Below, piece after piece: positions 13,928 to 56,528 of a stretch of DNA of 64,000 nt; within the stretch, counting starts at the first letter, position 1; every line of letters starts with the position of its first letter. The notes beneath the pieces are model-generated. The model made no database searches. It worked only from the letters and a program-made list of their open reading frames with translations, and had not been told where the DNA came from. A program made the position numbers and the translations under genes. The DNA is taken from contig DASYAI010000016.1 in assembly GCA_036501425.1 (NCBI GenBank), positions 8,490 to 72,489 of the forward strand, given 5' to 3'. Origin of the DNA: Acidimicrobiales bacterium. Its GTDB lineage: Bacteria > Actinomycetota > Acidimicrobiia > Acidimicrobiales > RAAP-2.

Positions 13928-13952
13928 GCGCCATGATCCACCGCTGGCCGGC

Positions 13953-30666: not shown

Positions 30667-30668
30667 GG

Positions 30669-32830: not shown

Positions 32831-33774
32831 CGACGTCCCTCCCTCTCGCTCGCAGTCGCCGCGGCGCCCGCCGACGGGCGGTACTCCACCTCGTCTCGTG
32901 TCAGCTCCATGAAGGCGTCCTCCAACGACGCGGTGATCGGTGTCAGCTCGTGAACCCGAAGTCCGTCGCGGGAGCCGAAATCACCGATCTGTGGTGCGGT
33001 CAGCCCCTCGACGGTCAACGACCGTGCATCGTCGTCGCGGTGGCCGATCGTGGCACCCGCCGCCGAGAGGACAGCGCTGAAGGCCGCCGGATCGGGCGTG
33101 ACCAGCTTCACCGCGCCACCGCTTCGGGCGACGAAGTCGGCCACGCTGGTTTCGGCGATGAGCCGACCGCGACCGATCACCACCAACCGGTCGGCCGTCA
33201 GTGCCATCTCGCTGATCAGGTGGCTGGACACGAACACCGTCCGGCCTCCCGTGGCGAGGTCCCGGAGGAGGTGGCGGAGCCACCGGATGCCCTCGGGGTC
33301 CAGACCGTTGACCGGCTCGTCGAAGATCAGCACACCGGGGTCCCCGAGGAGCGTTGCGGCGATCCCGAGCCGCTGGCTCATCCCGAGCGAGAACTTCCCC
33401 GCTCGCCGGTCGGCCACCGAGGCCAGCCCGACCTGGTCGAGGACCTCGTCGACCCGACGTAGCGGGATGTCGTTGCTCAGGGCGAGCCATCGGAGATGGT
33501 TCCGGGCGGTGCGGGCCGGATGAAAGGCCTTGGCGTCGAGCACGGCGCCGACCTCCCGCAGAGGCCACGCCAGCTCGGAATAGAGCTTGCCGCCGATCAG
33601 GGCGGACCCGGAGTCGGGAAGGTCGAGGCCCATGATCATGCGCATGGTCGTGGACTTGCCCGACCCGTTGGGTCCCAGGAAGCCGGTGACAGACCCGGGT
33701 AGGACCTCGAACGTCAGGTCGGCGACGGCAGTGGCCGCACCGTACCGCTTGGTGAGTGAGTGTGCCGTGATCAT
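32827..33774 (-). CDS. ABC transporter ATP-binding protein (ABC-2 / drug-bacitracin type)
   Basis: Track ORF 32827..33801, with the start placed at MITAHSLTKRYG (ATG 33774). Motifs: GPNGSGKSTT, FSLGMSQRLG, LIFDEPVNGLD. Confidence 0.88.
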   Translation of the reverse strand: MITAHSLTKRYGAATAVADLTFEVLPGSVTGFLGPNGSGKSTTMRMIMGLDLPDSGSALIGGKLYSELAWPLREVGAVLDAKAFHPARTARNHLRWLALSNDIPLRRVDEVLDQVGLASVADRRAGKFSLGMSQRLGIAATLLGDPGVLIFDEPVNGLDPEGIRWLRHLLRDLATGGRTVFVSSHLISEMALTADRLVVIGRGRLIAETSVADFVARSGGAVKLVTPDPAAFSAVLSAAGATIGHRDDDARSLTVEGLTAPQIGDFGSRDGLRVHELTPITASLEDAFMELTRDEVEYRPSAGAAATASEREGRR

Positions 33775-34041
33775 CACGACCAACGGTAAGGATCGGGCCA
33801 CCCGGCGGGAATGCCGCTACCCGGCGTCCACCAGCTGGGGCTACCCCCCGCCGGTCACCAGGGGGGGCGCAATTGCCGTTCGCCGCCGGGAGGGACGAGA
33901 TGCTGGACCGGTCGAGCCGAGCCGGCCGCGCTCGCCGAGCCGGCCGCGCGGGGTCGCTCGGGCGGCCTCCGGAGGCGGCTCGCGGGCCCACCGCCGAGGC
34001 GCCGTCCAGTGCCCCCAGCGGCGGGTGCCATGCTGGCTCCC

Positions 34042-34116
34042 ATGTGCGGCCGCTTCACGATGTCGGAGAGCAAGCGCCACCGGGCCCGGTCAGCCGCTCC
34101 CCCCGCCGCCAGGTAG
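34042..34116 (+). pseudogene. Possible remnant of an SRAP (SOS-response-associated peptidase / YedK) gene: only the first codons survive
   Basis: ATG 34042 gives MCGRFTMSESKRHRARSAAPPAAR*. MCGRF is the invariant N-terminus of SRAP proteins (catalytic Cys2), but the reading frame ends after 24 codons. The match is short, so confidence is low. Confidence 0.25.
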
Positions 34117-34151
34117 GACGACCGCCCGATCCGCTCCAAGGACCGAAGCCG

Positions 34152-35105
34152 ATGCGCTCCCGATTGTCCCGCGTCGCCGCCGCCTACCCCGAACTGCTGA
34201 TCGTGTTGGTCGCGGCTGGGACCGGCTTGGCCCTCGCCCGTCCGCTGCGCTGGCTGGACGGTCGCCAGGGCATCAACGTCCTCCTCGTCGTGCTCGTGTT
34301 CGCCACCGCGGTCACCGTGTCCACCGACGCCCTGGGCCGTCTCAGATCGGCCTGGCCCCACCTTGTCGCCACCCTGGCCATCGGAGTGATCCTGTTGCCC
34401 GCCTTGTCGTGGCTGGCATCACGGGTGGTCACCGCCGGGTCGCTTCGCAACGGCATCATGACCGTGGGCCTCGCACCGTGCGAAATCGCGTCCGTGGCCA
34501 CCACCGGTCTCGCCGGCGGGGAACCGGCGTTGGCGGCGGCCGTCCTCATCGGTTCCACGGCGCTCAGCGTGGCCGTCGCCGGACCGATCCTCTCCGTGGA
34601 GGCCAGCGGGGCACACGTCCACTCCGGGCATATCCTCATCAACCTGGCCGTCGTCGTCGCCCTACCCCTCGTCGCCGGGCTCACGTTGCGCGCCAAGACC
34701 GGGATCACCCCGTTGCGCGAGGTGGCAGCCACCAACGCCGCCACCGCCGCGCTGGCGGGACTGGTCGCTCTCGTCGCCGCCCAGGTCCACCTGGGGACCG
34801 CCTACTTCGCCGTGTTCGCCGCCATCGTCATCGTCATCGGCGTGTCAGCGGTCATCGCTGCACTGCTCGGGCGGACCCTGTCACCCCAACGGGCCACTGC
34901 GCTGCTGCTCACCATCTCCATGCGAGACTTCGCCATTGCTGCCGGCCTGGCCAGCGCGGCGTTCGGCCCCGCGTCGGCCGCCCCCCTCGGGCTCTACGGG
35001 GTCGCGGTGATCATCTGGGGGACCGCCGTCGCTGGCAGGCGACGAGCCAAGGCCACGACCCTGAACAGCCCGGAGAGCGACGGTCCGGAGCTGGTCGACG
35101 GATGA
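34152..35105 (+). CDS. Bile acid:sodium symporter (BASS/SBF-like) family membrane transporter
   Basis: The last 317 aa of track ORF 33873..35105, from ATG 34152 (MRSRLSRVAAAYPELLIVLVAAGTGLAL...), are polytopic. TVGLAPCEIASVATTGLAGG and ISMRDFAIAAGLA are typical of the SBF family. Confidence 0.7.
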   Translation: MRSRLSRVAAAYPELLIVLVAAGTGLALARPLRWLDGRQGINVLLVVLVFATAVTVSTDALGRLRSAWPHLVATLAIGVILLPALSWLASRVVTAGSLRNGIMTVGLAPCEIASVATTGLAGGEPALAAAVLIGSTALSVAVAGPILSVEASGAHVHSGHILINLAVVVALPLVAGLTLRAKTGITPLREVAATNAATAALAGLVALVAAQVHLGTAYFAVFAAIVIVIGVSAVIAALLGRTLSPQRATALLLTISMRDFAIAAGLASAAFGPASAAPLGLYGVAVIIWGTAVAGRRRAKATTLNSPESDGPELVDG

Positions 35106-35558
35106 CTCGGGCGACAGGGTTAGCCGGTGGCCGCGGGGGGCATCGTTGCCTCGTGCCGGATGACAAGATCGAGCACCAAGCCGACGACGATGGCCCTGAG
35201 GTCGATGAGGGGTTGCAGAAGGCTCATCATGAGGCGGACGGCGACACGGGAACGTCGGATTCGGACGACCAGGCCAATCGTTCCTGACAAGCCGCGGGCG
35301 GCCGGCGCGCTGGTTCTTCATCGCGTGGCCTCGGTCGCGCACGTCGTAGCGGACCGCGCCGATGGGGTCTTGCGCTTGGTCACCTTGGCCATGGGCGGGG
35401 GCCTCCTCGGGTGGTGGGGAAGCCGGAGGCTCACCGAAGGGTGTGACGCCCTGTTTCAGGCAGACGTGTTGAACATCCCTGAGCGCCCGCCCCCTCCCGG
35501 CACCGCACCTAGGGTCCCGTAATATCCAGGTCCTATCGGATCCCCTGGGGAGGACACC

Positions 35559-36827
35559 TTGGGCGCGGCAACGACGATTGTGAACGCGAAGGTATTCGAC
35601 GGGACGAAGTCGCGAGCCTGGACTTCGGTCCGATTCGCTGACGGCCTGATCACCGAGTGCTCGGTCTCCTCGGCCGCCGAAGAAGGCGACGAAGTGATCG
35701 ACGCGGGCGGCGGGACAGTGCTGCCCGGCCTCATCGACTCGCACGTGCACCTCGTGCCCGGCGCACTGGCACAATCCCTAACCTTCGGCGTTACCACCGT
35801 TCTTGACATGTTCAGCACAATCGACATCGTGGCGAGCGCGAAGGAGCAGGCCGGCTCCCGCTCAGATGTGGCGGACGTGCGCTCTGCGGGTGTCGGCGCC
35901 ACCGCGCCCGGCGGGCACCCGTCGATGATGTACGGCCCGTTCCCGACGTTGACCTCCGCTGAGCAGGCCGAGATGTTCGTGGCCGAACGGATAGCGGAAG
36001 GCTCGGACTATCTGAAGGTCTTCTCTGGGATCCGGGGTTTGTGGCCCTGGCTGGACGTTCAAACCATCAGAGCGCTCGTCACTGCCGGACACCGCCGTGG
36101 GTTGATTGTGGTCGCTCACGTGAGTTCGACAGCCGGCTTCGAGGAGGTCGTTGCCGCCGGCGTTGACGTCGTGGCCCACGTTCCGGCGAACGCCGAGCTA
36201 GACGAGTCCCTCGTCCAACGCACGGCCGAGGTCGGAGTCGTGGTCGGTCCGACGCTGGCTACCGTCGAGAACACTCTCGGTGAGCCCGGAGGCGCCGCCG
36301 TAGCAGGGGACCCGCGGCTCGGCGAGGTCCTCGGTGAGGTCTGGGTTCGTCGGTTGACCGCGGATGCCTCGGGAGGGCATGGTCGGCCAACGCCGCCGTA
36401 CTCTCGGGCCGAGGACAACGTGCGACGACTAGCCGATGCGGGGGTCACTCTCCTTGCTGGCACGGACGCTCCCAGTCCGGGCACCGCGTTCGGCGCAAGC
36501 CTGCACCGAGAACTTGAACTTCTGGTGCGGTGTGGCATCAGCCCGGCGCGGGCCCTGGAGGCTGCGACTGCTGAACCGGCCCGAATGTTCGGGCTCGCGG
36601 ATCGAGGACGTATCGCAGCCGGGCAGCGGGCGGACCTGGTCCTTTTGTCTGGTGACCCACTGACCGACATCACGGAGACCCGCTCCATTGAGTGGATATG
36701 GCGCGGCGGCGAAGCCTGTGACCGACATGCCTTCGCCGCAAGCGCTGCCGAAGTTGAACAGCTCGCCGCTTTCGATGCTCAGCTCGCTAGGATCGTGGCA
36801 GCCGTGCGTGGACGCCACGGTGGCTGA
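35559..36827 (+). CDS. Amidohydrolase-superfamily metal-dependent hydrolase
   Basis: Track ORF of 422 aa. TTG start with GGGGAGGA 5 nt upstream. Motifs: VLPGLIDSHVHL (HxH), VVAHV, LAGTDAP, ADLVLLSGDPL. Lower GC than the flanking regions. Confidence 0.8.
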   Translation: MGAATTIVNAKVFDGTKSRAWTSVRFADGLITECSVSSAAEEGDEVIDAGGGTVLPGLIDSHVHLVPGALAQSLTFGVTTVLDMFSTIDIVASAKEQAGSRSDVADVRSAGVGATAPGGHPSMMYGPFPTLTSAEQAEMFVAERIAEGSDYLKVFSGIRGLWPWLDVQTIRALVTAGHRRGLIVVAHVSSTAGFEEVVAAGVDVVAHVPANAELDESLVQRTAEVGVVVGPTLATVENTLGEPGGAAVAGDPRLGEVLGEVWVRRLTADASGGHGRPTPPYSRAEDNVRRLADAGVTLLAGTDAPSPGTAFGASLHRELELLVRCGISPARALEAATAEPARMFGLADRGRIAAGQRADLVLLSGDPLTDITETRSIEWIWRGGEACDRHAFAASAAEVEQLAAFDAQLARIVAAVRGRHGG

Positions 36828-37228
36828 GTAGCTCTCGTCACACAACCGCCCGCATCGCCCCGTGTAGCCCCGCCTGAGCCCCCGGGCCGGGAAGGCCTAC
36901 CGGTGCGGTCCCGGCCCGGCCACCAGCGTCCGGCTACAAGATCGCTAGCTCCCCTCGCGAGAGAATCCCGGGCTCGCCCTCCAACGTTGCCGGTCACGGC
37001 ACTAGTGCTCCTGGCAGTAGTCGACGCGGAACCGCTTGCCCTCGGCCGTGACGTACGTGCCGCGCACGCTCACCGGCCGGGGCAGTGGAGCGGCTGACCA
37101 CCTCGTCCGGGGTGGCTGTCTCGAACCATCCGCCAGCACCGTCCGGGCTGGGCCGTGAATCCGGGGGCGACCTCCACATTGGGGACCGTGATCCCAGGCT
37201 GTGACCCCGCGACGCCGGCTGGCACCCG

Positions 37229-37747
37229 TCAATCGCTCCGGTGGCTTGGCGGACCGAGGTAGACGTGCTCTTCGACCACGTCGCCCTGACCCAAGGGACA
37301 GGTGACGGTGCCTGCCCGGATCCACCCGCACGATTCGTAGAGCGCGACGGCGGCAACATGCTGTGCGACGACGTCGAGAATCGGATAGAGCCCGCGGGTC
37401 GCGGCCTCTCGCGCAGCCACATCGAGAAGTGATCGACCGATCCCGGCTCGACGCACACCGGGTGCCACCAGGAGTCGCGCCACGACAGCAAGGCGATGAG
37501 CTGGTCGGCCGAGCGCAGTGCTCGCTAGCCCAATAACGGCATCGGTGGAGCGCTTATGGAGCGCCACGTGGCCAACCACATGGCCGCCATCTTCTGCCAC
37601 CCAGGCTCCGTACGCCTCGGCTGACACGAGGAACTCCCGAAGACTCGTCGGCAAGTACACCGGGTAGCCGTCGAGATCGTGGACCGCCTCGGCAATGGCA
37701 ACACAGGCATCTACGTCAGCCCCTGTCCGCGGGCGAATCGTCACCAC
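37229..37747 (-). CDS. GNAT family N-acetyltransferase
   Basis: C-terminal 172 aa of track ORF 37229..38089, starting at GTG 37747 (VVTIRPRTGADVDACVAI...). The acetyl-CoA site is LLVAPGVRRAGIGRSLL. Confidence 0.75.
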   Translation of the reverse strand: MVTIRPRTGADVDACVAIAEAVHDLDGYPVYLPTSLREFLVSAEAYGAWVAEDGGHVVGHVALHKRSTDAVIGLASTALGRPAHRLAVVARLLVAPGVRRAGIGRSLLDVAAREAATRGLYPILDVVAQHVAAVALYESCGWIRAGTVTCPLGQGDVVEEHVYLGPPSHRSD

Positions 37748-37868
37748 GGACTGCGATCGTAGGTGACCCGTATCGGCGTTGCTCTCTGGCTCGGTACGCG
37801 CCCACGGCAGGACGGGGGTGGGCAGCCCAGCGAGTCGATGGGTCATCGAGTCATGGCAAGCTGAGGCC

Positions 37869-38246
37869 ATGGCAGGATTGCGTTTGGCCCTGATCGTCTC
37901 CCATGAGGGGAGCAACGCCCAAGCGGTCATCGATGCCTGAACCCGGGGGGAGCTGGCCGCGACAGCGGCCGTCGTGATTAGCAACAACTCCGCAAGCCGT
38001 GTCTTGGAGCGAGCCAGGCTCGTCGGGATACCTATTGCCCATCTCAGCGACGTTACCCATCCCGAACCCGACGGTTTGGACCGAGCCATCCTCGCTGAAC
38101 TGACAGCACGTGACGTACAGGTAGTAGTGCTTGCGGGTTATCCATTACCCAGGGTTCGCCACCTTTGGACGGATTCTGAAGGCGTGGGCGGGATACTCAC
38201 CGGTGGAGCGGTGATCTACGTCGCCCGGGAGCACGTCGAGCCGTAA
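37869..38246 (+). pseudogene. purN: purN-like phosphoribosylglycinamide formyltransferase pseudogene (in-frame TGA plus a degraded 3' half)
   Basis: ATG 37869 gives MAGLRLALIVSHEGSNAQAVIDA, then TGA (37938-37940), then TRGELAATAAVVISNNSASRVLERARLVGIP...VVVLAGY. This parallels E. coli PurN (LISGNGSNLQAIIDAC...VFSNKADAFGLERA...VVLAGFM). The stop sits at the conserved Cys codon. After VVLAGY the expected NIHPSLLP region is missing or out of frame. Confidence 0.7.
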
Positions 38247-38289
38247 GCAGGGTCCCAGCCGTCGCCCATCCGGGCGCCCCCAGAATTGC

Positions 38290-38619
38290 TCACGAGCCGT
38301 TCAACTCCCCGGCGCCGCCGAGGAGCCCTTCGATGTCATCGAGGAGAGCGACGGCGTCCTCCGGCACACCCATGACGAGGCTGACGGCCTCGACCTCGAC
38401 CTCGACCGAGAACCGGAAGAACGCGCAGCAGGTCTTCTCCCGCTGGGCGAGGGCCACAATCGCCGGCAACTCGGCCCGGTCTTGGGTCAGTTCGAGGCGC
38501 AACGTGTCGGCGGCCACACGCTCGAAGCGGACCACCACCCTGACGAGCAGCTCTCGCCACTCGCGCCTCTGGGCAAGGGCGTCGCCTTCGTCGAGCGTGC
38601 AGGCCAGCGGGATCCTCAC
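38290..38619 (-). CDS. Hypothetical protein (109 aa) with a conserved-looking CC motif
   Basis: Track ORF: MRIPLACTLDEGDALAQRREWRELLVRVVV...ALAQREKTCCAFFRFSVEVEVEAVSLVM. The composition is protein-like. It resembles a small actinobacterial family often found near metal/redox regulators, but I cannot name the family. Confidence 0.5.
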   Translation of the reverse strand: MRIPLACTLDEGDALAQRREWRELLVRVVVRFERVAADTLRLELTQDRAELPAIVALAQREKTCCAFFRFSVEVEVEAVSLVMGVPEDAVALLDDIEGLLGGAGELNGS

Positions 38620-38986
38620 GGAGCTACTTTATGGCCGCTCAATGACCCGACCCAAGCGCCCGCACCGGCAGGAGACGCCGCCCCCAGAATCGCCCAGGAG
38701 CCTGGCAGTGAGGGATCGGGGACCCCTCCTTGTCCTCAGCCACTTCGTCGGTCAGCGTGGTGCCCATGCCCAAGCGCCGACCGGTGACGACCCCGAACAA
38801 GAACAAGAACCAGAAGCCGGGCCGCAACGACCCGAGCCGGGGTGGTGGTGGCCGACGCACCGATCGGGGCAACGGCCGATGATCCTCGGGCACGGGCCCA
38901 CCGTCCCACTAGACGCCCCCAGAGTCGCTCAGCAGGCGGCCACCTCGCTCCATAGTGGCGTCCCCGCCTATGGGCGACCGCAAGCC

Positions 38987-39709
38987 CTATGGGCCGACGC
39001 TCTGCTTGTCGAAGCCGAGTTGGCCGAGGGCGGTTTCGATGCCCGGCGGCGGCTCCTCGAAGGCGACCACGATGGTGTCGTCCTCCCAGACCGCATCACC
39101 GTTGCCACCGATGGACTGGACGTCGCTCTCGGCCGAGGACAGGTCGTTCTCGGTGAAGATCTTCACGAGGCCCTTGGCGCCGGCGCACTCGTTGTCGGTG
39201 GTCTGGGCGTAGAGGTGCTCGGTGAGATTGCCGGCCTCGCTGAGATTGCAGAGCCCGATGCCGGTCGTGAGGATTGCGTTCTCCACCTTGGAGAAGCTCG
39301 GCAGCGTGCCTCCTCTGCCCGTTGGAGCGGTCGCATCGTCGGTCGAGGTCCACTCCTCGTGCCAGTGCCCGGTCGAGTTGGTGCCCGATGTGACCGAGCA
39401 GCTCACGTAGGCAACGACGTCACCGTATGCCGAACACGCTGTACTTGAACTTCTTGCTGGCCACCCATTGCTTCGGGTCGGTGCACTGGGCCGAGCTGGC
39501 GTTGCCGACGCCCTCCTTGACAGCGTTGCCCTTGACTGCGTGACGCACGATGGCCGCAGACGGTCCCTTGGGGGTCGTGGCGCCCGACGCTGACGCGGGG
39601 ACGCTTGCCAGCCCCGCACCTGCACCGAGCGTGAGAGCGCCGAGCGCCGCGCCGGCTGCCAGCCGCCTCGTGCCCGGGAACGTCCTGGTCGTTTCGATGA
39701 ATCCATCAT
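38987..39709 (-). pseudogene. Secreted protein gene disrupted by frameshift(s)
   Basis: ATGATG 39709 with GGGAG upstream lies in the frame of track ORF 38987..39889. The signal peptide and N-terminal domain (TRRLAAGAALGALTLGAGAGLASVPASASGATTPKGPSAAIVRHAVKGNAVKEG...KKFKYSVFGIR*) are in the frame of track ORF 39420..39911. The C-terminal domain (YGDVVAYVSCSVTSGTNSTGHWHEEW...VKIFTENDLSSAESDVQSIGGNGDAVWEDDTIVVAFEEPPPGIETALGQLGF) returns to the first frame. Confidence 0.5.
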
Positions 39710-39754
39710 TGCTCCCGGCCTCCCTGGATAGCCGACGGAGACGCCCTGCTCTTC

Positions 39755-40081
39755 GTGGGCGAGGGACGCGAGGGACGCGAGGGACGCGAGGGCAAGGCGA
39801 CCACCCAACCCCCGCACCACTCGAACTGGCGGCAGCGGATCTGGGTGTCGGCGTATGAGCGAGCGGGCTTGCCCGGTCTTCGGTTCCACGATCTGCGGTC
39901 GTTAGCAGCAAGCGTTTTGGTGGCTAGCGGCATCAACGTAAAAACGGCAATGACCCGCCTTGGCCACGCCTCGGCAAGAACGACGCTGGAGCTGTACGCC
40001 CGAGCCCACGACGACGCCGACGTGGAGGCCGCCCAGAGCGTGGGTGCGTGGTTCCGTTCGAGCGCCTCTGCCAACGGGTGA
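39755..40081 (+). pseudogene. Tyrosine recombinase/integrase, C-terminal fragment only
   Basis: Track ORF of 108 aa. ...AGLPGLRFHDLRSLAASVLVASGINVKTAMTRLGHASARTTLELYARAHDD covers the HxxR, LGH and catalytic Tyr region. The N-terminal ~250 aa of a normal integrase are missing. It lies 93 bp from the 3' end of tRNA-Val. Confidence 0.75.
39761..39793. repeat. 9-bp tandem repeat GAGGGACGC, three perfect copies plus a partial copy
   Basis: Read directly: gagggacgc gagggacgc gagggacgc gagggcaag. It lies exactly where the integrase homology begins. Confidence 0.9.
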
Positions 40082-40173
40082 TTTTGGAGCCGTGGACAAT
40101 GGATGGACAATGGAGCGGGGCCTGACGCTCGCAGTTCCGAGCTTCGCAGGCCCCCTACCAGTGGGAACAGGGG

Positions 40174-40247
40174 TGGGCGCTAGAGGACTCGAACCTCCGA
40201 CCTCAGCCGTGTGAAGGCTGCGCTCTAACCAACTGAGCTAAGCGCCC
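40174..40247 (-). tRNA. tRNA-Val(CAC): tRNA-Val (anticodon CAC)
   Basis: The minus strand folds by hand as GGGCGCT TA GCTC AGTTGGTTA GAGC G CAGCC TTCACAC GGCTG AGGTC GGAGG TTCGAGT CCTCT AGCGCCC A. This is a full cloverleaf with one G-U pair in the T stem. CCA is not encoded. Confidence 0.92.
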
Positions 40248-41294: not shown

Positions 41295-41897
41295 TCAGCG
41301 GGGGTCCGGGGCCGCCAGCAACGCCGAGCGCAGCAGGGCCAGGACGTCGGCTCGCCGCCGCACGAGCGATCTGGCGGTTGGCTCCTCACCCACCGCCCGC
41401 AGCACCTCCACCTCGGTGACCATGCCGACCACGGTGGAGTAGATGGCCAGCAGCAGGAGACCCGGATCGTGGCGACGCATCCGGCCGGCATCCATCTCGG
41501 CCTGCAGGAACTCCGACGCCCGCCGCACCAGCGGGGCAATGGCCGTGGTGAACTGGGTGGCCGCCGGTGGCCCGAGGCGGGCTGCCTCGCGTACCAAGCC
41601 CAGCAGCTCGGGCCGCCTCGCCGACAGCCGGAACACCGACCGGACCACGGCGTCGACCCGGGCCCACCCCTCCCCCGCCGCGTCGAGGGCATCTTGCAAC
41701 GCGCTCGCCAGCTCGGTGGCCCCCTGGGTGATGACCGCCTCGAGGAGGCTCTCCTTGCTGGGGAACCAGTAGAGGATGGTCTGCTTGCGGATCTCGAGCA
41801 TGGCGGCGACGGCGTCGAGCGAGGTGCCTTCGTAGCCCTTGGTCCCGAAGGACGAGAGGGCCGCGGCCACGATGCGGTCCGGCGTATCGCTCACCAT
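41295..41897 (-). CDS. TetR/AcrR family transcriptional regulator
   Basis: C-terminal 200 aa of track ORF 41295..42335, starting at ATG 41897. HTH: GYEGTSLDAVAAMLEIRKQTILYWFPSKESLL. It is divergent from the FAR-HAD operon. Confidence 0.85.
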   Translation of the reverse strand: MVSDTPDRIVAAALSSFGTKGYEGTSLDAVAAMLEIRKQTILYWFPSKESLLEAVITQGATELASALQDALDAAGEGWARVDAVVRSVFRLSARRPELLGLVREAARLGPPAATQFTTAIAPLVRRASEFLQAEMDAGRMRRHDPGLLLLAIYSTVVGMVTEVEVLRAVGEEPTARSLVRRRADVLALLRSALLAAPDPR

Positions 41898-41904
41898 GCG
41901 ACCA

Positions 41905-41934
41905 TGGTAGACACTCCTCCCTACCAGATGGTAG
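41905..41934. promoter_or_regulatory. Candidate TetR operator: TGGTAG-N10-CTACCA-GA-TGGTAG, plus a direct repeat ATGGTAGACA x2
   Basis: Read directly from the 46-bp divergent spacer: accATGGTAGACActcctccCTACCAGATGGTAGACAgatcc. Confidence 0.4.
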
Positions 41935-41943
41935 ACAGATCCG

Positions 41944-44355
41944 GTGGGCATCAGTGACCGCCTCTCGGGGCGCCGCCTCTTCATCACCGGCGCGACCGGG
42001 TTCCTCGGAACCGCCCTGGTCGAACGCATCCTGCGGTGCGTTCCCGACGCCGAGGTGGTCCTCCTCGTCCGCCCGACCCGTCGCTCGGACGCGGCCCGCC
42101 GGGTGGAGCGCGAGGTGCTTCGCAACGACTGCTTCGATCGCCTGCGAGAAGAGCTGGGTGGGCGGTTCGCCTCCGAGATGAGCCGTCGGGTCCGGGCCGT
42201 CTCGGGTGACGTCGGCGAGGACGGGCTGGGGCTCGACGAGGCGGGACGCGCCGCACTCGCGTCGTGCGATCTCGCCATCCACTCCGCCGCCGCGGTGAGC
42301 TTCGACGCTCCCCTCGACCAGGCGGTGGAGGTCAACCTGCTCGGTCCCTCGCGGGTGGCTGCCGCGGTCGCCGCCGCGCGTGCCGGGGGAGCCTCGGCCG
42401 AGGGAACCGGGCCGGCGCACCTGATCGCCGTCTCGACCGCCTATGTCGCCGGCACCCACCAGGGCGAGGCGCGTGAGGAGCTACTGGACGACCAGCGCTT
42501 CACGGTCGACGTCGAGTGGAGGGGCGAGGTGGCGAGCGCCCGGCGGCTGCGCGCCGACCTGCAGGCCGAGTCGCGTCGGGTGGAGCACCTGAGACGGTTC
42601 ACCACGCGGGCGCGAGAGGAGATGGGCGGTGCAGGCGACCACGTCCTCGCCGCCCGGGCCGAAAAGCTGCGCGACGAATGGGTCAAACGGCGGCTGGTGG
42701 AAGCCGGTACCGCCCGAGCGCAGGCGCTCGGCTGGCCGGACGCCTACCCCTTCACGAAGGCGCTGGGCGAGCAGGCGCTGATCGCCGGCCACGGCGTGGG
42801 CCGGGCGGTAGAGCACGACGCCGTCCCGCTCACGATCGTCCGCCCGTCGATCATCGAGTCGGCCCTGTCCGAACCGCGGCCCGGCTGGATCCGGGGCTTC
42901 CGTATGGCCGAGCCCATCATCGTCTCCTATGCGCGGGGCTTGCTCCGCGAGTTCCCCGGCGTTCCCGAAGGGGTCACCGACGTGATCCCGGTCGACATGG
43001 TGGTCGCGGCCATCCTGGCGGTCGCCGCCGAGGGTCCACCCCGCAGCGGACCCGCCGTGCTGCACGTGGCGTCGGGGGTCCGCAATCCCCTCCACTACGG
43101 GCGGCTGGTCGAGCTGGTGCAGGACTGGTTCGGGCGCCACCCGGTGTACGACGAGCAAGGCCAGCCCATCGACGTGCCGGCGTGGTCGTTCCCTGGCCGG
43201 GGCAGGGTGCAACGCCAGCTCCAGCGGGCGGACCGGGCGATGGAGGCCGCCGAGCGCCTCATCACCGCGCTGCCGCTCCGAGGGCGTCAGGCCGCGCTGG
43301 CGGCCCGGCTCGAGGACCGCCACGCGTTGGCCCGCCGAGCGCTGGGCTACGTGGAGCTCTACGGCGCCTACACCGAGACCGAGGCCCGCTATCGGGTCGA
43401 CCGGCTCCTCGAGCTGTGGGGCCGCTGCGGCGCCGAGGACCGGGCGCGCTTCTGCTTCGACCCGGGGGTCATCGACTGGGACCGCTACGTCCACGACGTC
43501 CACCTGCCCTCGGTGGTGCACCACGCCCGGCTCCGCACGACGCCGGGCCGCTCGGCGGTCGACCGGCGTCCGGACCGGGCCCGCCGGGCCATCCTCTCCC
43601 CGGACCGGCACCTGGCGGTCTTCGACCTCGAGCACACCCTCATCGCGTCGAACGTGGTGGACACCTACGCCTGGCTGGCGTCGCGGCACCTGTCGGTGGC
43701 CGAGCGCGCCGCCTTCGTGGCCCGCCTGCTGGGCGACGCCCCCTCCCTGCTGGCGCTCGACCGGCGCGACCGGGGGGACTTCCTGCGCTCCTTCTACCGC
43801 CGCTACGAGGACGCGCCGGTCACCTCGTTGGCAGAGGACTCGTGGGACCTCTTCCACCACCACCTGCTCCCGCGGTCGTTCCCCGACGGGCTGGCCCGGG
43901 TGCGCGAGCACCGGCGTCTCGGCCACCGGACCCTGCTGATCACCGGTGCGCTCGATTTCGTCATCGAGCCGATCCGACCCCTGTTCGACGACATCGTCTG
44001 CGCCCGGCTCGACCAGCGTGCCGGGCGCTACACGGGGCGGCTCGAGGAGCTCCCGCCCATCGGCGAGGCTCGGGCGCTGCTGCTCGCCGACTACGCCGCC
44101 GTGCACGACCTCTCGCTCGAGGAGTCGGTGGCCTATGCCGACTCCTCGAGTGACCTGGCGATGCTCGAGGCGGTCGGCTTTCCGGTGGCCGTGAACCCCG
44201 AGGCGCGCCTGGCGGCGATCGCCCGGCGGCGAGGCTGGCACGTCGAGCACTGGTCCAAGGCCACCGGGCGCTCCCACCCCCTGCTGCCTCTCGGCCCGCG
44301 CAGCGGAGCGCGAGCAGACGGTCGTCCCCTCCGCCCGGCCCGGTCCGCCCGGTGA
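41944..44355 (+). CDS. Fatty acyl-CoA/ACP reductase-type SDR (male-sterility NAD-binding domain) fused to a HAD-IB phosphatase-like domain
   Basis: Track ORF of 803 aa with a GTG start. The N-terminal part has LFITGATGFLGTALVERIL, HSAAAVSF and YPFTKALGE (YxxxK). The C-terminal ~230 aa have LAVFDLEHTLI (motif I with Glu at the Asp+2 position), ITGALDFV and AYADSSSDLAMLEAVG. Confidence 0.8.
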   Translation: MGISDRLSGRRLFITGATGFLGTALVERILRCVPDAEVVLLVRPTRRSDAARRVEREVLRNDCFDRLREELGGRFASEMSRRVRAVSGDVGEDGLGLDEAGRAALASCDLAIHSAAAVSFDAPLDQAVEVNLLGPSRVAAAVAAARAGGASAEGTGPAHLIAVSTAYVAGTHQGEAREELLDDQRFTVDVEWRGEVASARRLRADLQAESRRVEHLRRFTTRAREEMGGAGDHVLAARAEKLRDEWVKRRLVEAGTARAQALGWPDAYPFTKALGEQALIAGHGVGRAVEHDAVPLTIVRPSIIESALSEPRPGWIRGFRMAEPIIVSYARGLLREFPGVPEGVTDVIPVDMVVAAILAVAAEGPPRSGPAVLHVASGVRNPLHYGRLVELVQDWFGRHPVYDEQGQPIDVPAWSFPGRGRVQRQLQRADRAMEAAERLITALPLRGRQAALAARLEDRHALARRALGYVELYGAYTETEARYRVDRLLELWGRCGAEDRARFCFDPGVIDWDRYVHDVHLPSVVHHARLRTTPGRSAVDRRPDRARRAILSPDRHLAVFDLEHTLIASNVVDTYAWLASRHLSVAERAAFVARLLGDAPSLLALDRRDRGDFLRSFYRRYEDAPVTSLAEDSWDLFHHHLLPRSFPDGLARVREHRRLGHRTLLITGALDFVIEPIRPLFDDIVCARLDQRAGRYTGRLEELPPIGEARALLLADYAAVHDLSLEESVAYADSSSDLAMLEAVGFPVAVNPEARLAAIARRRGWHVEHWSKATGRSHPLLPLGPRSGARADGRPLRPARSAR

Positions 44356-45626
44356 AGTCCCTCGTGATCGAGCGCAATGTGGCCCGGTTCGCCGCAGCGC
44401 GGGTCATGGCGGCCGTCGCGCCGGGTCGCTCGGCCGGCATCGGCCCGCTCCGCCTCGCCGAGCAGGACCCCCCCGCAGCCCCCGCAGCGGACTGGTACCC
44501 GGTGCTCCCCTCCCTTTCGGGTATCTGCGGGTCGGACCTCGCCACGCTCGACGGCCGGAGCTCGCGCTACTTCGAGGACCTGGTGAGCTTCCCGTTCGTG
44601 CCGGGTCACGAGATCGTCGGCGTGGCGGCGCAGGGCGCGGTGGGTGCCGGCGGCGCCGAGATCGCCGCCGGAGCCCGGGTGGTGATCGAACCGGTGCTCG
44701 GCTGCGCCGCCCGGGGCATCGAGCCTCCGTGCCGGGCGTGCGCGACGGGAAACACCGGGGACTGCACCCGGGTGGCCCACGGCCATGTGCGCCCGGGGCT
44801 GCAGACCGGCTTCTGCACCGATACCGGAGGGGGGTGGTCCGAGGCGGGCCTGGTCGCTCACTCCTCCCAGCTGCACCCGGTGCCCGCCGGGCTCAGCGAC
44901 GAGGACGCGGTGACCGTCGAGCCAGTCGCCTGCGCCACTCACGCGGTCCACATGGCGGCCCTACGCGCCGGGGAGGTCGTGGCCGTCCTGGGGGCGGGCA
45001 CGCTCGGGCTCGCCCTCACCGCCGCCCTCACCCACCTGGTCGAGGTGGGCCGCTGTGCCGAGCCCGAAGTGGTCCTCGTCGGCGCCCGTTACCCGCACCA
45101 GCAACGGTGGGCCCTCGAGTTCGGGGCCACCTCCGCCCTCCCGGCCGACGCGCTGGCCCGCGCCGTGCGTCGGCGCAGCAGGTCCCTTGCCCTGGGCTCC
45201 CCGCGCCTGGGCACCCAGCAGCTCACCGGCGGCGCCGACGTGGTGTTCGACTGTGTCGGATCGAGCGAGTCCATCGCCCAGTCGCTGTCGATGGTCCGTC
45301 CTCGCGGGCGCATCGTACTGGTGGGCATGCCCGGGCGGGTGCACGTCGACCTGGCCGCCCTGTGGCACCGCGAGATCAGCCTGGCCGGTGCGTACGCCTA
45401 CGGGACCGAGGGCGGCGCCGGAGGAGGAGCGCCGGCGCGGACCTTCGATCTGGCGTTCGACGTCGTGGCCCGGCATCGCACCGGCCGGTTGGTGTCCGCC
45501 ACCTACCCGCTCGAGCGCTTCGAGGAGGCGATCACGCACGCCGGCCAGGCAGGCCGCCGGGGCTCGGTCAAGATCGCCTTCGCACCGCACGCGGAGCGCT
45601 CCGCCTCGAAAGGACCACGCCGATGA
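44352..45626 (+). CDS. Zinc-dependent medium-chain dehydrogenase/reductase (alcohol / threonine / polyol dehydrogenase-like)
   Basis: Track ORF of 424 aa. Motifs: GICGSDL, PGHEIVG, a structural Zn Cys cluster (CAARGIEPPCRACATGNTGDC), and Rossmann VLGAGTLGL. GTGA overlap with the upstream stop. Confidence 0.8.
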   Translation: MKSLVIERNVARFAAARVMAAVAPGRSAGIGPLRLAEQDPPAAPAADWYPVLPSLSGICGSDLATLDGRSSRYFEDLVSFPFVPGHEIVGVAAQGAVGAGGAEIAAGARVVIEPVLGCAARGIEPPCRACATGNTGDCTRVAHGHVRPGLQTGFCTDTGGGWSEAGLVAHSSQLHPVPAGLSDEDAVTVEPVACATHAVHMAALRAGEVVAVLGAGTLGLALTAALTHLVEVGRCAEPEVVLVGARYPHQQRWALEFGATSALPADALARAVRRRSRSLALGSPRLGTQQLTGGADVVFDCVGSSESIAQSLSMVRPRGRIVLVGMPGRVHVDLAALWHREISLAGAYAYGTEGGAGGGAPARTFDLAFDVVARHRTGRLVSATYPLERFEEAITHAGQAGRRGSVKIAFAPHAERSASKGPRR

Positions 45627-47212
45627 GCCCGCGACCCGGCTTCGTGCTGGAGGTGGACCGCTCCACCCCGCCCACCATGTTCTGGCACGGGGAGAAGTTC
45701 GCCCTCGAGCGGCTGCCCGAGGGGAGCCGGGTCGTCTACGCGCCCGAGCCGTCCGAGCCCTTGGCGGACCCGGTCGCCGCGATCCGCCACGCCCTGCTGC
45801 ACCCGCTCGGCGACCGCGCTCCCCTGCCGGACCTGCTGCGCGCCGACATGCGGCTCACCATCTGCTTCGACGACGTCTCGCTGCCCCTCCCGCCGATGCA
45901 GCCGCCCGACATCCGCCAGATGGTGATCGAGGAGGTGCTCACCATGGCGGCCGACGCCGGCGTCGATGACGTGGTGCTGGTGGCCGCCCTGGCCCTGCAC
46001 CGGCGCATGACCGAGGCCGAGCTCCGCCACGCGCTGGGGGATCGGGTCTACGACGCCTTCGCCCCCCACGGGCTGCTGCTGCAGCACGACGCCGAGGATC
46101 CCCAGAACCTCGTCCACCTCGGACAGACCGACCAGGGGGAGGACGTCGAGATCAACAAGCGGGCGGCCACCAGCGACCTGCTGGTGTACGTCAACATCAA
46201 CCTGGTGGCGATGGACGGCGGGCACAAGAGCGTGGCCACCGGCCTGGCGAGCTACCGGAGCCTCCGCCACCATCACAACCCCCAGACCATGCGCCACAGC
46301 CGGTCGTTCATGGATGCCCCGGCCTCGGAGCTGCACTCCTCCAACTGGCGCATGGGCCGACTCATCGCGGCCAACGGGGTCAAGGTGTTCCAGATCGAGA
46401 CCACGCTCAACAACGACACCTTCCCCTCCTCGTTCGCCTTCCTGCAACGACGCGAGTGGGAGTGGTCATTGCGCGACCGGGCCACCTACGGCGCGACCAG
46501 CGCCGCCCTCAGCGCCACCCCGGAGTCAACCGCCCGGCGCATCTTCCACTCGATCCGCTCGCCTCACGCGCTCAGCTCGGTGCAGGCGGGAGAGGTGGAG
46601 GCGGTCCACGAGGTGACCACGGCCAACGTGTGGGCCCAGCAAGGCGTCGAGGTGCAGGGGCAGACCGACATCCTGACCATGGGCCTGCCGTACATCTGCC
46701 CCTACAACGTCGACTCGATCATGAACCCGATCCTCGTTGCCTGCCTGGGCCTCGGGTACTTCTTCAACCTGTACCGGGGCAAGCCCCTGGTGCGCGAGGG
46801 CGGGGTCCTCATCATGCGTCACCCCACGCCCTGGGCCTTCCACCCCGGCCACCATCCGAGCTATATCGACTTCTTCGAGCAGGTCCTCGCCGAGACGACC
46901 GATCCGGTGGCCATCCACAAGCAGTTCGAGGAGTCCTTCGCCACCGACCCCTGGTACATCCACCTCTACCGCACGGCCCACGCCTATCACGGGGTGCATC
47001 CGTTCTACATGTGGTATTGGTGCGCGCACGCGCTCGAGCACCTGGGACGGGTCGTCGTCGTCGGTGGCGACACGGCGGCGGTACGCCGGCTCGGCTTCTC
47101 GCCCGCCTCGACCCTGGCCGACGCGCTCGAGATGGCCGGGGACGTGGTGGGGCCGTCGCCCACCCTGACCCACCTGCACGCTCCGCCGATCCTCCTCGCC
47201 GACGTGCGATGA
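45623..47212 (+). CDS. LarA-like protein (lactate racemase N-terminal / DUF2088 family; putative nickel-pincer-cofactor-dependent racemase/epimerase)
   Basis: Last 529 aa of track ORF 44729..47212, from ATG 45623 (ATGA overlap). Sequence features: RLTICFDDVSLPLPP, LLVYVNINLVAMDGGHKSVATGLASYRSLRHHHN, GLPYICPYNVDSIMNPIL. The family assignment is from recalled motif patterns and was not verified by search. Confidence 0.6.
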   Translation: MSPRPGFVLEVDRSTPPTMFWHGEKFALERLPEGSRVVYAPEPSEPLADPVAAIRHALLHPLGDRAPLPDLLRADMRLTICFDDVSLPLPPMQPPDIRQMVIEEVLTMAADAGVDDVVLVAALALHRRMTEAELRHALGDRVYDAFAPHGLLLQHDAEDPQNLVHLGQTDQGEDVEINKRAATSDLLVYVNINLVAMDGGHKSVATGLASYRSLRHHHNPQTMRHSRSFMDAPASELHSSNWRMGRLIAANGVKVFQIETTLNNDTFPSSFAFLQRREWEWSLRDRATYGATSAALSATPESTARRIFHSIRSPHALSSVQAGEVEAVHEVTTANVWAQQGVEVQGQTDILTMGLPYICPYNVDSIMNPILVACLGLGYFFNLYRGKPLVREGGVLIMRHPTPWAFHPGHHPSYIDFFEQVLAETTDPVAIHKQFEESFATDPWYIHLYRTAHAYHGVHPFYMWYWCAHALEHLGRVVVVGGDTAAVRRLGFSPASTLADALEMAGDVVGPSPTLTHLHAPPILLADVR

Positions 47213-48174
47213 CCGCCCGCTCGGTGCTCGGCCGCCTCCGGCGGTTTCCGTTGGTCGCGCCCCCCTGGCCGTCGAGCCTGCCGAGGCCGGCGCCCGAGCG
47301 GCGGGTCGGGCTGGACTACGACCACGAGTGGTCGCGGCGGTACCCGGTGCGCCTGGCGCGGGCGGTGGTGGTCGACAACGTGACCCGCCCGGTGGCCCGG
47401 CTCCTGGCGCCGCCCACCATCCGGGGCGTCGAGCACCTGCGCCACGTCGGCGCCCCGGCCATCTTCGTCGCCAACCACACCAGCCACATCGACACCCCGC
47501 TCCTGTTGTCGAACCTGCCGGTCGAGTTCCGGCACCGCACCGTGGTGGCCGCGGCGTCGGACTACTTCTTCGACCGTACCTGGAAGGCGGCGTTGTGGTC
47601 GTTCCTGCTGCCGGCCATCCCCATCGAGCGGACCCGGGTGAACCGCCGGTCGGCCGACATGGCGGCAGAGCTGATCGGCCAGGGTTGGAGCTTGATCATC
47701 TTCCCCGAGGGCGGACGCTCCCCCGACGGTTGGGGCCAGACGTTCCGCCCGGGCGGCGCGGCCTATCTGGCCCTCCGCACCGGACGTCCGGTCGTGCCGG
47801 TCCACCTGCGCGGGGCCCGCACCGTCGTGCCCCGGCGACCCCGGCACGACACGCCGCCCGGGGGGTCGGGCACCGAGTCGGCCGGGGGCCGGCGCCTGGT
47901 GCGCGCCCCGGTGACGTTGACCTTCGGCGCCCCGATGGTCCCCGACGACGGCGAGGACGCCCGGCGGTTCGGCGTGCGACTCGAGCGCGCCGTCGAGGTG
48001 CTCGCCGACGAGTCGGTCAGCGACTGGTGGCAGGCGCGCCGGCGAGCCGGCGCGGGACGCACGCCCTCGCACCGCGGACCCGACGCGTCGCCGTGGCGGC
48101 GGGCCTGGGAGCTCGACCGGTCGGCGTCGACCGTCGCGTCCCCCAGCGACGCCCCGAGCTGGCCCAAGCGCTGA
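47209..48174 (+). CDS. PlsC-family lysophospholipid / 1-acyl-glycerol-3-phosphate acyltransferase
   Basis: Last 321 aa of track ORF 46456..48174, from ATG 47209 (ATGA overlap). Motifs: FVANHTSHIDTPLL (HX4D), IFPEGGRSPDG, PVVPVHLRG. Confidence 0.8.
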   Translation: MTARSVLGRLRRFPLVAPPWPSSLPRPAPERRVGLDYDHEWSRRYPVRLARAVVVDNVTRPVARLLAPPTIRGVEHLRHVGAPAIFVANHTSHIDTPLLLSNLPVEFRHRTVVAAASDYFFDRTWKAALWSFLLPAIPIERTRVNRRSADMAAELIGQGWSLIIFPEGGRSPDGWGQTFRPGGAAYLALRTGRPVVPVHLRGARTVVPRRPRHDTPPGGSGTESAGGRRLVRAPVTLTFGAPMVPDDGEDARRFGVRLERAVEVLADESVSDWWQARRRAGAGRTPSHRGPDASPWRRAWELDRSASTVASPSDAPSWPKR

Positions 48175-48218: not shown

Positions 48219-49055
48219 GTGTGCCTGCTCGTGATGCTCTTCGGGGTCGATCCGGGCGCCCCGCTGGTCGTGGCGGCCAACCGGGACGAGCGGCTCGAGC
48301 GCGCCGCGACGGCCGTGACGGTGCTGTCCGAGCGCGACCCGCGCATGCTCGGCGGCCGTGACGGCCTCGCCGGTGGCACCTGGCTGGCGGTGAACGAGCA
48401 CGGGGTGGTCGCCGGCCTCACCAACCGCCCCGCGGTCGCCGGGCGAGATCCGACCAAACGCTCCCGCGGCGAGCTCCCGCTGTGGCTCGCCGCCCACCGC
48501 AGCGCCTCGGCCGCGGCCGCGGCCTTCGCCCGGCACTTCGATCCGTCCGCCTTCAACCCGTGCTGGCTGATGGTCGGCGACCGCGACGCGCTCTTCGTCA
48601 TCGACCTGACGGGCGAGGACGACCCGGCCCCCCGCGAGCTGGGTCCCGGTGCCTACGTGCTCGAGAACAGCCCTCTGGGCGAGCCCACCCCCAAGCGGGA
48701 GCATGTGGCGGCCCAGCTGGCGGGCCTGGTGGACCGCCGCGGGATGGACCTGCTGGCCGGCCTGGGCCACCTGCTCGCCGACCATCGGGTCCCCGACGGC
48801 GTGCCCGAGGCGGCCCGAGGGCCTCGGTCGGACACCGACCCGCCGGACCACGGCGATACGTCGGGCGGGCCGGACCCGTCGGACCGGCCGGCGGCGCTGT
48901 CGGCCAACTGCGTGCACATCGAGGGCTACGGCACTCGGTCGTCCCTCCTGTGCCGCGTCCCGGCCAGCCCGGTGCGCTGGCCCGAGGTGCTGGTGGCCGA
49001 CGGATCGCCGTGCGTGGCGCCGATGCGCGACGTCAGCGACCTGTGGCGGACCTGA
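48219..49055 (+). CDS. NRDE-family protein (TANGO2-like, N-terminal Cys)
   Basis: Track ORF of 278 aa. MCLLVMLFG...VVAANRDER...GGTWLAVNEHGVVAGLTN is the characteristic NRDE motif. GTG start. Confidence 0.75.
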   Translation: MCLLVMLFGVDPGAPLVVAANRDERLERAATAVTVLSERDPRMLGGRDGLAGGTWLAVNEHGVVAGLTNRPAVAGRDPTKRSRGELPLWLAAHRSASAAAAAFARHFDPSAFNPCWLMVGDRDALFVIDLTGEDDPAPRELGPGAYVLENSPLGEPTPKREHVAAQLAGLVDRRGMDLLAGLGHLLADHRVPDGVPEAARGPRSDTDPPDHGDTSGGPDPSDRPAALSANCVHIEGYGTRSSLLCRVPASPVRWPEVLVADGSPCVAPMRDVSDLWRT

Positions 49056-55844: not shown

Positions 55845-56528
55845 GTGGCCGCGGGACGGCACATCGCCGCCGAGCTCGCCCGGCGCGACCCGGTGGTCTC
55901 GATGCTGGTGGCCACCCACGGCGTGCCACCTACCCGCCGGGCGGTACCGGCCGAGGATCGCTTCGCGGCCCTGGTCCAGGTCATCTGCTCCCAGCAGCTC
56001 GCGGGCAACGCCGCCCGGGCCATCCACGGCCGGTTGGTGGCCGTCCTCGGCGGGGTGGTCACCCCGGCTGCGGTGCTCGCCCGCCCGGCCGGTCAGCTGG
56101 CGGCCGCCGGGCTGAGCGGGGCCAAGGTGGCTGCCGTCCGAGATCTCGCCGATCGGGTCGCCCACGGCCAGGTCGCTCTGGGTCGGATTGGCGGGCTGGA
56201 GGACGAGGCGGTGGTCGAGCACCTCGTACAGGTCCGCGGCGTGGGTCGGTGGACGGCCGAGATCTTCCTGCTGTTCTCGCTCGGTCGCCACGACGTGTGG
56301 CCGGTCGGCGACCTGGGGGTCCGTAGCGGCTACGCCCGGGCGTTCGGGCTGTCCGCCGTCCCGTCGCCGCGCGAGCTCGACTCGATGGCCGACCGGTTCC
56401 GGCCCTACCGCAGCACCCTCGCCTGGTACTGCTGGCGGGTGGTCGACGACCGGGGCCCGCGCGAGCCGGCTCAGCGAACCAGGTCCCGCACCGCCCCGGT
56501 CGCCTCGATGGTGCCCGAGCTCAGATAG
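55845..56528 (+). CDS. HhH-GPD DNA glycosylase (AlkA / 3-methyladenine DNA glycosylase II-like)
   Basis: C-terminal 227 aa of track ORF 55317..56528, from GTG 55845. Motifs: QQLAGNAARAI, VRGVGRWTAEIFLLFSLGRHDVWPVGDLGVRSG (HhH plus catalytic Asp). Confidence 0.75.
   Translation: MAAGRHIAAELARRDPVVSMLVATHGVPPTRRAVPAEDRFAALVQVICSQQLAGNAARAIHGRLVAVLGGVVTPAAVLARPAGQLAAAGLSGAKVAAVRDLADRVAHGQVALGRIGGLEDEAVVEHLVQVRGVGRWTAEIFLLFSLGRHDVWPVGDLGVRSGYARAFGLSAVPSPRELDSMADRFRPYRSTLAWYCWRVVDDRGPREPAQRTRSRTAPVASMVPELR

Follow-up and report, generated by a model that had tools for sequence, protein, structure and literature searches.

A TetR-flanked four-enzyme operon of Acidimicrobiales resembling the elb ether-lipid genes, with a LarA homologue as candidate for the ether-forming step

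We analysed a 64-kb stretch of DNA from an Acidimicrobiales bacterium (contig DASYAI010000016.1; the whole stretch is called the window), which has a G+C content of ~74% and ~49 predicted genes. At 41295-48174 it carries a TetR-family regulator gene and, read divergently from it, four genes for a fatty acyl reductase (FAR) fused to a HAD-IB phosphatase-like module, a zinc-dependent alcohol dehydrogenase (ADH), a LarA homologue (LarAH) and a PlsC-family acyltransferase (AT). Comparison with known systems suggests that these genes form an ether-lipid operon related to elbABCDE of Myxococcus xanthus. The features of the locus are listed here.

41295-41897, minus strand: TetR-family regulator, 200 aa, divergent from the operon (TetR_N, 3.6e-11, Pfam)
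41904-41913, no strand: second ATGGTAGACA half-site, a direct repeat of the right arm of the palindrome, read from the sequence
41920-41937, no strand: predicted operator with the palindrome CCTACCAGATGGTAGACA, lying 6 bp upstream of the FAR start codon
41944-44355, plus strand: FAR-HAD fusion, 803 aa (open reading frame and Pfam)
41944-43533, plus strand: FAR1-type fatty acyl reductase module, residues 1 to ~530 (NAD_binding_4, 2e-54)
43606-44355, plus strand: HAD-IB phosphatase-like module, residues ~555-803 (PF12710, 2e-25)
44352-45626, plus strand: Zn-dependent MDR dehydrogenase of the polyol-dehydrogenase type, 424 aa (ADH_N and ADH_zinc_N)
45623-47212, plus strand: LarA homologue of the LarAH14/15/16 family, ElbC homologue, 529 aa (Lar_N, 1e-37)
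47209-48174, plus strand: PlsC/AGPAT-family acyltransferase, 321 aa (PF01553, 8e-20)

The same five genes appear among the contig's own gene calls, and the G+C content at third codon positions of the five frames is 0.88-0.95. Consecutive operon genes overlap by 4 nt (GTGA at 44352-44355, ATGA at 45623-45626 and ATGA at 47209-47212), and the TetR-FAR spacer is 46 bp long (41898-41943). An earlier account of this DNA, made from its letters alone (the sequence-only reading), had listed the five genes, three overlaps, spacer and a number of catalytic motifs, all of which are present in the reading frames and the sequence. Its domain assignments also held in profile searches (NAD_binding_4, PF12710, ADH_N/ADH_zinc_N, Lar_N, PF01553 and TetR_N). 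No clear transmembrane segment was seen in any of the four enzymes. The G+C content of the operon is at the genome's normal level, and a LarA-like protein of identical sequence is also encoded on a 16.6-kb JGI metagenome contig.

Conservation and predicted control of the operon

In a scan that covered one genome per GTDB species, relatives of the LarA-like protein were encoded at no fewer than 596 loci. The conservation counts given here are taken from the best 80 of these at least 596 loci, all from Acidimicrobiales metagenome-assembled genomes (MAGs), at 70-87% identity. Gene order was read by tblastn with the window proteins, and only loci with enough flanking sequence were counted. The order FAR-HAD, ADH, LarAH, PlsC on a single strand was found in 59 of 60 species loci. 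Because it is collinear in so many related species, the four-gene arrangement is more than chance. The 4-nt overlaps are not universal; short gaps take their place in many relatives. A divergent TetR homologue is present in 39 of the 62 related loci with room upstream. The median identity to the window protein is 78% for the LarAH, 69% for the HAD module, 63% for the FAR module, 59% for the ADH and 57% for PlsC. With the highest median identity, the LarA-like protein is the most constrained part of the operon. Its closest relatives are encoded in MAGs named Acidimicrobiales or Acidimicrobiaceae, and several of the matching MAG records bear bog, palsa or pasture sample names. The breadth beyond Acidimicrobiales comes from the table of Desguin 2020 and from single look-ups in Anaeromyxobacter, Archangium and Rubrobacter.

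The regulator has an N-terminal TetR helix-turn-helix domain, lies divergently to the operon and shares with it a spacer that contains a palindrome, CTACCAGATGGTAG at 41921-41934. The motif (T/C)TACCA-N-ATGGTAGACA stands just upstream of the FAR start in all 37 Acidimicrobiales TetR-FAR spacers that could be delimited. Apart from this motif the spacers cannot be aligned; they are 24 to 271 bp long, and many of them, not all, hold a second GGTGGTAGACA-like copy. The conserved palindrome reads as a phylogenetic footprint of the TetR operator. TetR would bind it over the start of the operon and would presumably be released by a lipid ligand. The operon structure, the TetR control and the lipid-type product that the sequence-only reading had proposed are all supported. 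The TetR protein itself reached no curated NCBIfam equivalog.

Apparent gene fusions and a possible fifth gene were considered and rejected. Two database proteins among the relatives, P0041 (ADH plus LarA, 926 aa) and P0065 (LarA plus PlsC, 868 aa), look like fusions. Their Arg/Pro/Gly-rich junction stretches are out of frame, so these proteins are not usable as evidence of fusion; the junctions are most likely indel errors of long-read MAG assemblies. A TANGO2 gene (48219-49055) starts 45 nt 3' of the PlsC stop codon. It was found in one of the 83 loci searched (L001, which encodes the window's own operon proteins) and is missing from all the others, and it was rejected as a fifth operon member.

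Homology to the elb ether-lipid genes

LarAHs have been divided into groups and their gene neighbours tabulated. Group 14 is found with COG0204 PlsC, COG0560 HAD and COG1063 Zn-ADH proteins (88% each) and with a COG3320 thioester reductase (50%); the neighbours of group 15 are COG0451, COG0560 and COG1022 (PMC7583248, Table S1). Judged by these assignments, the group 14 neighbour set is precisely that of the window operon. Group 15 includes MXAN_1529. The ether-lipid operon elbABCDE of M. xanthus runs from MXAN_1531 to MXAN_1527, and MXAN_1529 is therefore elbC. Disruption of elbD strongly decreases alkyl and vinyl ether lipids, and inactivation of elbE also lowers ether lipids (PMC9131029). 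In the same review elbC is described as encoding a protein with no known function, and the biochemistry that leads from a fatty acid to an alkyl ether is not established for elb (PMC9131029). Reviews up to 2026 still give ElbC no assigned role.

These data overturn two statements of the sequence-only reading, namely that the gene set maps to no characterised pathway and that lipid pathways have no place for a LarA homologue. The gene association is already published as a table entry and elb is already a recognised ether-lipid cluster, and for these two reasons the window locus is not a new system. The sequence-only reading had named orthologues in a published pathway as what would tell against its proposal; the elb operon and the table of Desguin 2020 provide these in part. 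In the literature searched, no paper joined ether lipids with LarA, DUF2088 or nickel-pincer.

The homology extends to four modules of the operon. In Anaeromyxobacter oryzae, Epimerase, HAD and Lar_N genes are followed by one for a 1,593-aa multidomain protein (NAD_binding_4, Sterile, AMP-binding, PP-binding and Acyltransferase domains) and by a second Epimerase gene, which is the published elbA-E architecture. The window FAR module, with motifs GATGFLG (residues 16-22) and YPFTK (268-272), shows a weak Sterile match in Pfam besides NAD_binding_4, and it matches the structure of a fatty acyl-CoA reductase (PDB 7eoz, 2e-59, residues 1-529). Its residues 1-521 are 31% identical to residues 28-593 of Anaeromyxobacter ElbD (E 4e-51). 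The window PlsC, with its HX4D motif HTSHID at residues 90-95 and FPEGGRS at 165, is 41% identical to the C-terminal acyltransferase module of ElbD (1320-1448; E 3e-19). The HAD module is 37% identical to Anaeromyxobacter ElbB (E 9e-34). The LarAH is 46-51% identical to the Myxococcota LarAH15 proteins of the ElbC family, the Anaeromyxobacter elb member included. Thus a FAR1-like module, an AGPAT/GNPAT-like acyltransferase, an ElbB-type HAD and an ElbC-type LarAH are found in one operon, and homology and synteny support the view that the window modules are the counterparts of FAR, AT, HAD and ElbC in an ether-lipid system validated by genetics.

Common to both systems are a FAR1-like reductase carrying a Sterile domain, an acyltransferase resembling AGPAT, a HAD-IB protein and a member of the LarAH14/15/16 family, and the four window modules are 31-51% identical to their elb homologues (elb of M. 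xanthus is MIBiG BGC0000871). Both lack AGPS. They differ in how the parts are joined. In elb, FAR and AT are fused with an acyl-CoA synthetase (ACS) and an acyl carrier protein (ACP) in the 1,593-aa protein and HAD is separate, whereas the window operon has a FAR-HAD fusion and a free-standing AT, and lacks ACS and ACP. Unlike elb, the window locus is under predicted TetR control.

The FAR-HAD, Zn-ADH and LarAH core is also found in Rubrobacter radiotolerans, where the three genes stand in a row downstream of a PlsY gene; the FAR-HAD fusion has 752 aa, the Zn-ADH 401 aa and the Lar_N protein 526 aa. The identities to the window are 38% (FAR), 45% (HAD), 45% (ADH) and 53% (LarAH). The FAR-HAD fusion, Zn-ADH and LarAH14 are in the same order as in the window. 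In contrast to the window, PlsY lies upstream, there is no PlsC downstream, no TetR gene was seen adjoining, and HAD motif I is the canonical DVDGT. Rubrobacterales reportedly have abundant 1-O-alkyl glycerols, and a putative 1-O-alkyl glycerol phosphate operon resembling that of other aerobic ether-lipid producers is said to have been described in them; if so, the architecture has already been flagged in Rubrobacter. According to the title of Sinninghe Damste 2023, Rubrobacterales are dominated by mixed ether/ester lipids. For a dependence of alkyl ether lipids on genes of this kind, the lipids of Rubrobacterales and the M. xanthus genetics are indirect evidence.

The linkage of LarAH and elbD is not universal. 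In two Archangium genomes (L003, 10001-11602; L086, 10001-11614) the LarAH15 gene does not adjoin elbD, in agreement with the review's statement that elbB and elbC may lie away from elbD and elbE (PMC9131029). One of the Archangium LarAH15 genes adjoins genes for a fatty-acid desaturase, an amine-oxidase-type flavoprotein and a metallophosphatase; the other has a HAD gene 2.7 kb upstream.

The window also resembles, in its overall logic of a FAR, a PlsC-family acyltransferase and a reductase, the aerobic FAR1-GNPAT-AGPS-alkyl-DHAP reductase pathway of animals, also encoded by MXAN_1676 to MXAN_1674 (DHAP, dihydroxyacetone phosphate). Unlike that pathway, the operon has no FAD-dependent AGPS, and a Pfam scan of the ~49 predicted genes found no AGPS-type flavoprotein encoded in the 64-kb window. 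A LarA homologue occupies an unassigned slot instead.

Active site of the LarA homologue and the proposed pathway

The LarA-like protein scores 880.7 bits on NF052592 (cut-off 740; model positions 1-520), the NCBIfam model for the 'NPN-dependent hydroxyacid isomerase, LarAH14/15/16 family', in which NPN is the nickel-pincer nucleotide cofactor. Its Lar_N match (PF09861) has an E-value of 1.2e-37. In an AlphaFold2 model (pLDDT 88.7, pTM 0.90) its best fold matches are the LarAHs with a single catalytic His, 9q3k and 9q3j (TM 0.83 and 0.81), followed by classical LarAs; Foldseek E-values were 1.6e-30 for 9q3k and 1.4e-22 for 5huq. Across LarA and the characterised LarAHs, TM scores normalised to target length are 0.70-0.83.

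Residues D84, H126, K202 and H218 align with D72, H108, K184 and H200 of solved LarAs, which serve as ribose contact, first catalytic His, cofactor-tethering (thioamide) Lys and Ni ligand, respectively. The four residues show no variation across 22 sequences of Acidimicrobiia, Rubrobacteria and Myxococcota, and D, K and H are kept in group 14 in the residue table of Desguin 2020 (PMC7583248). The position of the second catalytic His, H174 in LarA, falls in an alignment gap of the window protein; this His is also stated to be missing from LarAH groups 14 and 15 (PMC12611868). LarA binds the substrate carboxylate through R75, Y294, Q295 and K298. The first of these is L87 in the window protein, and the group 14 row reads I/L, S, gap and N at the four positions (PMC7583248). 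The window protein thus has neither the pair of catalytic His residues nor the carboxylate-binding set of a hydroxy-acid racemase. It is also ~100 residues longer than LarA, and its context is lipid metabolism instead of the organic-acid metabolism of LarA. A group 14 LarAH from Frankia, purified and supplied with NPN, was inactive in seven hydroxy-acid racemase and epimerase assays, unlike the characterised LarAHs.

The protein is therefore a member of the LarA superfamily that lacks two defining features of hydroxy-acid racemases. Since the second His and the carboxylate-binding Arg are missing, it is probably not a hydroxy-acid racemase. The family assignment of the sequence-only reading stands, and its racemase/epimerase label probably does not. 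A plain lactate or hydroxy-acid racemase was rejected as a candidate function on the basis of the active site and the published negative assays.

Among solved structures, LarASp and LarABw (9q2u, 9q3k, 9q3j) match the window protein best in both sequence and fold, at an identity of only 20-24%. They have one catalytic His, bind NPN, lack lactate activity and are suspected to act on a phosphorylated ligand. They carry Asn at the His174 position, where the window protein has a gap, and Lys for Arg75, where it has Leu. Their context is glycolysis and sugar metabolism. These relatives bear on an alternative in which the ether lipid is still made but the LarAH acts on stereochemistry, inverting or isomerising a centre in the glycerol backbone or in a precursor; the sn-2 hydroxyl of a lyso-lipid or of glycerol phosphate and glycerate/phosphoglycerate are examples. 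The ether would then be formed by the FAR module via a hemiacetal, or by an unlinked enzyme. Every characterised LarA enzyme is a C2 racemase or epimerase, single-His LarAHs have been proposed to be unidirectional epimerases, and the closest solved relatives adjoin triose-phosphate genes and carry a phosphorylated ligand. The i15:0 aldehyde of M. xanthus is elbD-dependent (PMC9131029), which also speaks for this alternative. However, the His174 equivalent is deleted and not replaced, all four carboxylate-binding positions differ from LarA, the Frankia protein was inactive in the seven assays, and a pathway based on glycerol 3-phosphate (G3P) has no evident need for stereo-inversion. We consider this alternative unlikely.

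Our preferred reading, held with moderate confidence, is that the locus makes 1-O-alkylglycerol(-phosphate) ether lipids independently of AGPS, as a TetR-repressed operon and a domain-shuffled actinobacterial counterpart of elbABCDE. The FAR module, corresponding to the ElbD N-terminus, would reduce an acyl thioester from the cellular acyl-CoA or acyl-ACP pool to a fatty aldehyde or alcohol. PlsC, corresponding to the ElbD C-terminus, would acylate a G3P- or DHAP-type acceptor. The polyol-type Zn-ADH would take the place of the short-chain dehydrogenase (SDR) ElbE or ElbA and reduce a ketone or aldehyde, for example alkyl-DHAP to 1-alkyl-G3P. The HAD module, corresponding to ElbB, would remove a phosphate, for example from 1-alkyl-G3P to give alkylglycerol.

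For the ether bond itself, the LarAH is the best candidate. We know of no FAR, HAD, AT or dehydrogenase that makes ether bonds, and no AGPS is encoded in the window, which together single out the LarAH. With a tethered NPN and its single catalytic His, it could transiently oxidise a hydroxyl, either the sn-2 hydroxyl of an (acyl)glycerol phosphate or that of a fatty alcohol. The carbonyl thus formed may activate the neighbouring position for C-O exchange or condensation, or may itself undergo acyl/alkyl exchange or hemiacetal dehydration, and return of the hydride would then yield the ether bond of 1-O-alkyl-glycerol phosphate without AGPS. We hypothesise that transient oxidation with hydride return on the same face suits the active site better than stereo-inversion does, because the cofactor ligands are kept, one acid/base His is left and there is no carboxylate site. 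That LarAH14/ElbC proteins are nickel-pincer-dependent ether synthases of this kind is a tentative proposal, more doubtful than probable.

Several points weigh against the ether-lipid operon and this proposed chemistry. The AMP-binding (ACS), PP-binding (ACP) and Epimerase-family genes of elb-type loci are missing from the window operon. Its dehydrogenase is a Zn-MDR protein, whereas ElbA and ElbE are extended SDRs, another superfamily. This ADH (motifs GICGSD and GHE; Zn ligands Cys118, Cys127, Cys130 and Cys138) has L-idonate 5-dehydrogenase, ketose reductase, xylitol dehydrogenase and galactitol-1-phosphate 5-dehydrogenase as its nearest NCBIfam and PDB relatives, below the family cut-offs, and is 45% identical to the Rubrobacter operon ADH. 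HAD motif I reads FDLEHT (its DLEHT at residues 560-564, 43621-43635), that is D-x-E and not D-x-D, and phosphatase activity is thus not assured. The motif is FDLE[H/N/Q]T throughout the Acidimicrobiales FAR-HAD proteins (loci L013-L083), with the general acid/base Asp+2 consistently Glu in this lineage; the Rubrobacter fusion and myxobacterial ElbB have FDVDGT. For the Acidimicrobiales carriers, ether lipids are predicted from the genes. The cultured group 14 hosts Frankia, Kribbella and Nocardioides are not known to us as ether-lipid producers. ElbD homologues are not always predictive of ether lipids, Pontiella being an example, and no elbC-specific mutant is described in the review (PMC9131029). 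The ether-forming role of the LarAH was inferred by elimination and chemical plausibility.

Another alternative is that the operon makes a neutral or polar lipid without an ether bond, for instance fatty alcohols, wax-like esters or an acylated polyol phosphate of an unusual kind, with the likeness to elb reflecting only shared building blocks. A FAR with an acyltransferase is the logic of wax-ester synthesis too, the ADH is of the polyol type, and ElbD homologues occur in organisms where ether lipids are not found. Yet bacterial wax synthesis normally proceeds via WS/DGAT and not PlsC, and LarAH, HAD, FAR and AT co-occur across Actinomycetota and Myxococcota in a pattern that tracks known ether-lipid producers. 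We regard a non-ether product as the least likely of the alternatives considered here.

Two further features, of the LarAH and of its surroundings, weigh against the proposed chemistry. Arg75, which in LarA binds the cofactor phosphate, is Leu in the window protein, and a Pfam scan found no larB, larC or larE among the ~49 predicted genes of the 64-kb window. Both would fit a LarA-like protein that works without the nickel-pincer cofactor and does no redox chemistry; it might be a scaffold or a lipid-binding subunit, or an enzyme that uses another cofactor. Frankia group 16, which has lost Lys184, indicates that the clade can drift away from NPN. But Lys202, His218, Asp84 and His126 are invariant in the 22 sequences from three lineages, the LarAH is the most conserved protein of the operon, and the nearest structures bind NPN. 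A role without NPN is unlikely to us, slightly more so than the stereocentre alternative.

In the dataset of Desguin 2020, the Frankia group 16 paralogues (FRAAL3757, Francci3_2278) also adjoin PlsC and HAD genes. Group 16 has Gly for the cofactor-tethering Lys and, in one case, Asn for the catalytic His. It is possibly a degenerate LarAH copy.

Implications and genomic surroundings

The locus joins two problems, the AGPS-free synthesis of alkyl ethers in aerobic bacteria and the single-His LarAHs that have no known substrate; that ElbC is a LarAH is the connection between them. In the actinobacterial version the pathway comes down to FAR, HAD, a single dehydrogenase, LarAH and a single acyltransferase, and this minimal four-gene set makes direct reconstitution feasible. 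An orphan clade of nickel-pincer enzymes also gains a concrete candidate function. If the LarAH were an ether synthase, it would supply the missing AGPS-independent ether-forming step in aerobic bacteria and would be the first example of a non-isomerase reaction of a LarA-fold enzyme. Acidimicrobiales are predicted to be candidate sources of non-isoprenoid alkylglycerol ethers.

Some features of the wider window may be mentioned. A GatD/MurT pair, a LysR gene and an upstream gene for a 269-aa Pro/Arg-rich membrane protein are syntenic in roughly 31-38 loci. Two other acyl-related genes, for an AT3-SGNH O-acyltransferase (709 aa, 20006-22135, minus strand) and a malonyl-CoA decarboxylase (468 aa, 56471-57877, minus strand), have no evident operon link. 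A tRNA-Val gene (40172-40247, minus strand) adjoins a 108-aa C-terminal fragment of a phage-type integrase (39755-40081). The two lie at the edge of a 14-kb stretch (26000-40000) of lower G+C content (0.67-0.69, against 0.71-0.77 elsewhere), which looks like the remnant of a tRNA-integrated element ending ~1 kb before the TetR gene. Positions 1-19000 hold a large cobalamin biosynthesis and salvage cluster encoding a Mg-chelatase-like AAA protein, CobN, CobQ, an aminotransferase, CobD, CobS, CobU, CobO, CbiA, four tetrapyrrole methylases and CbiG. Upstream of its CobU-CobS-CobD leg lies a cobalamin riboswitch (9852-9974, minus strand, 84.7 bits).

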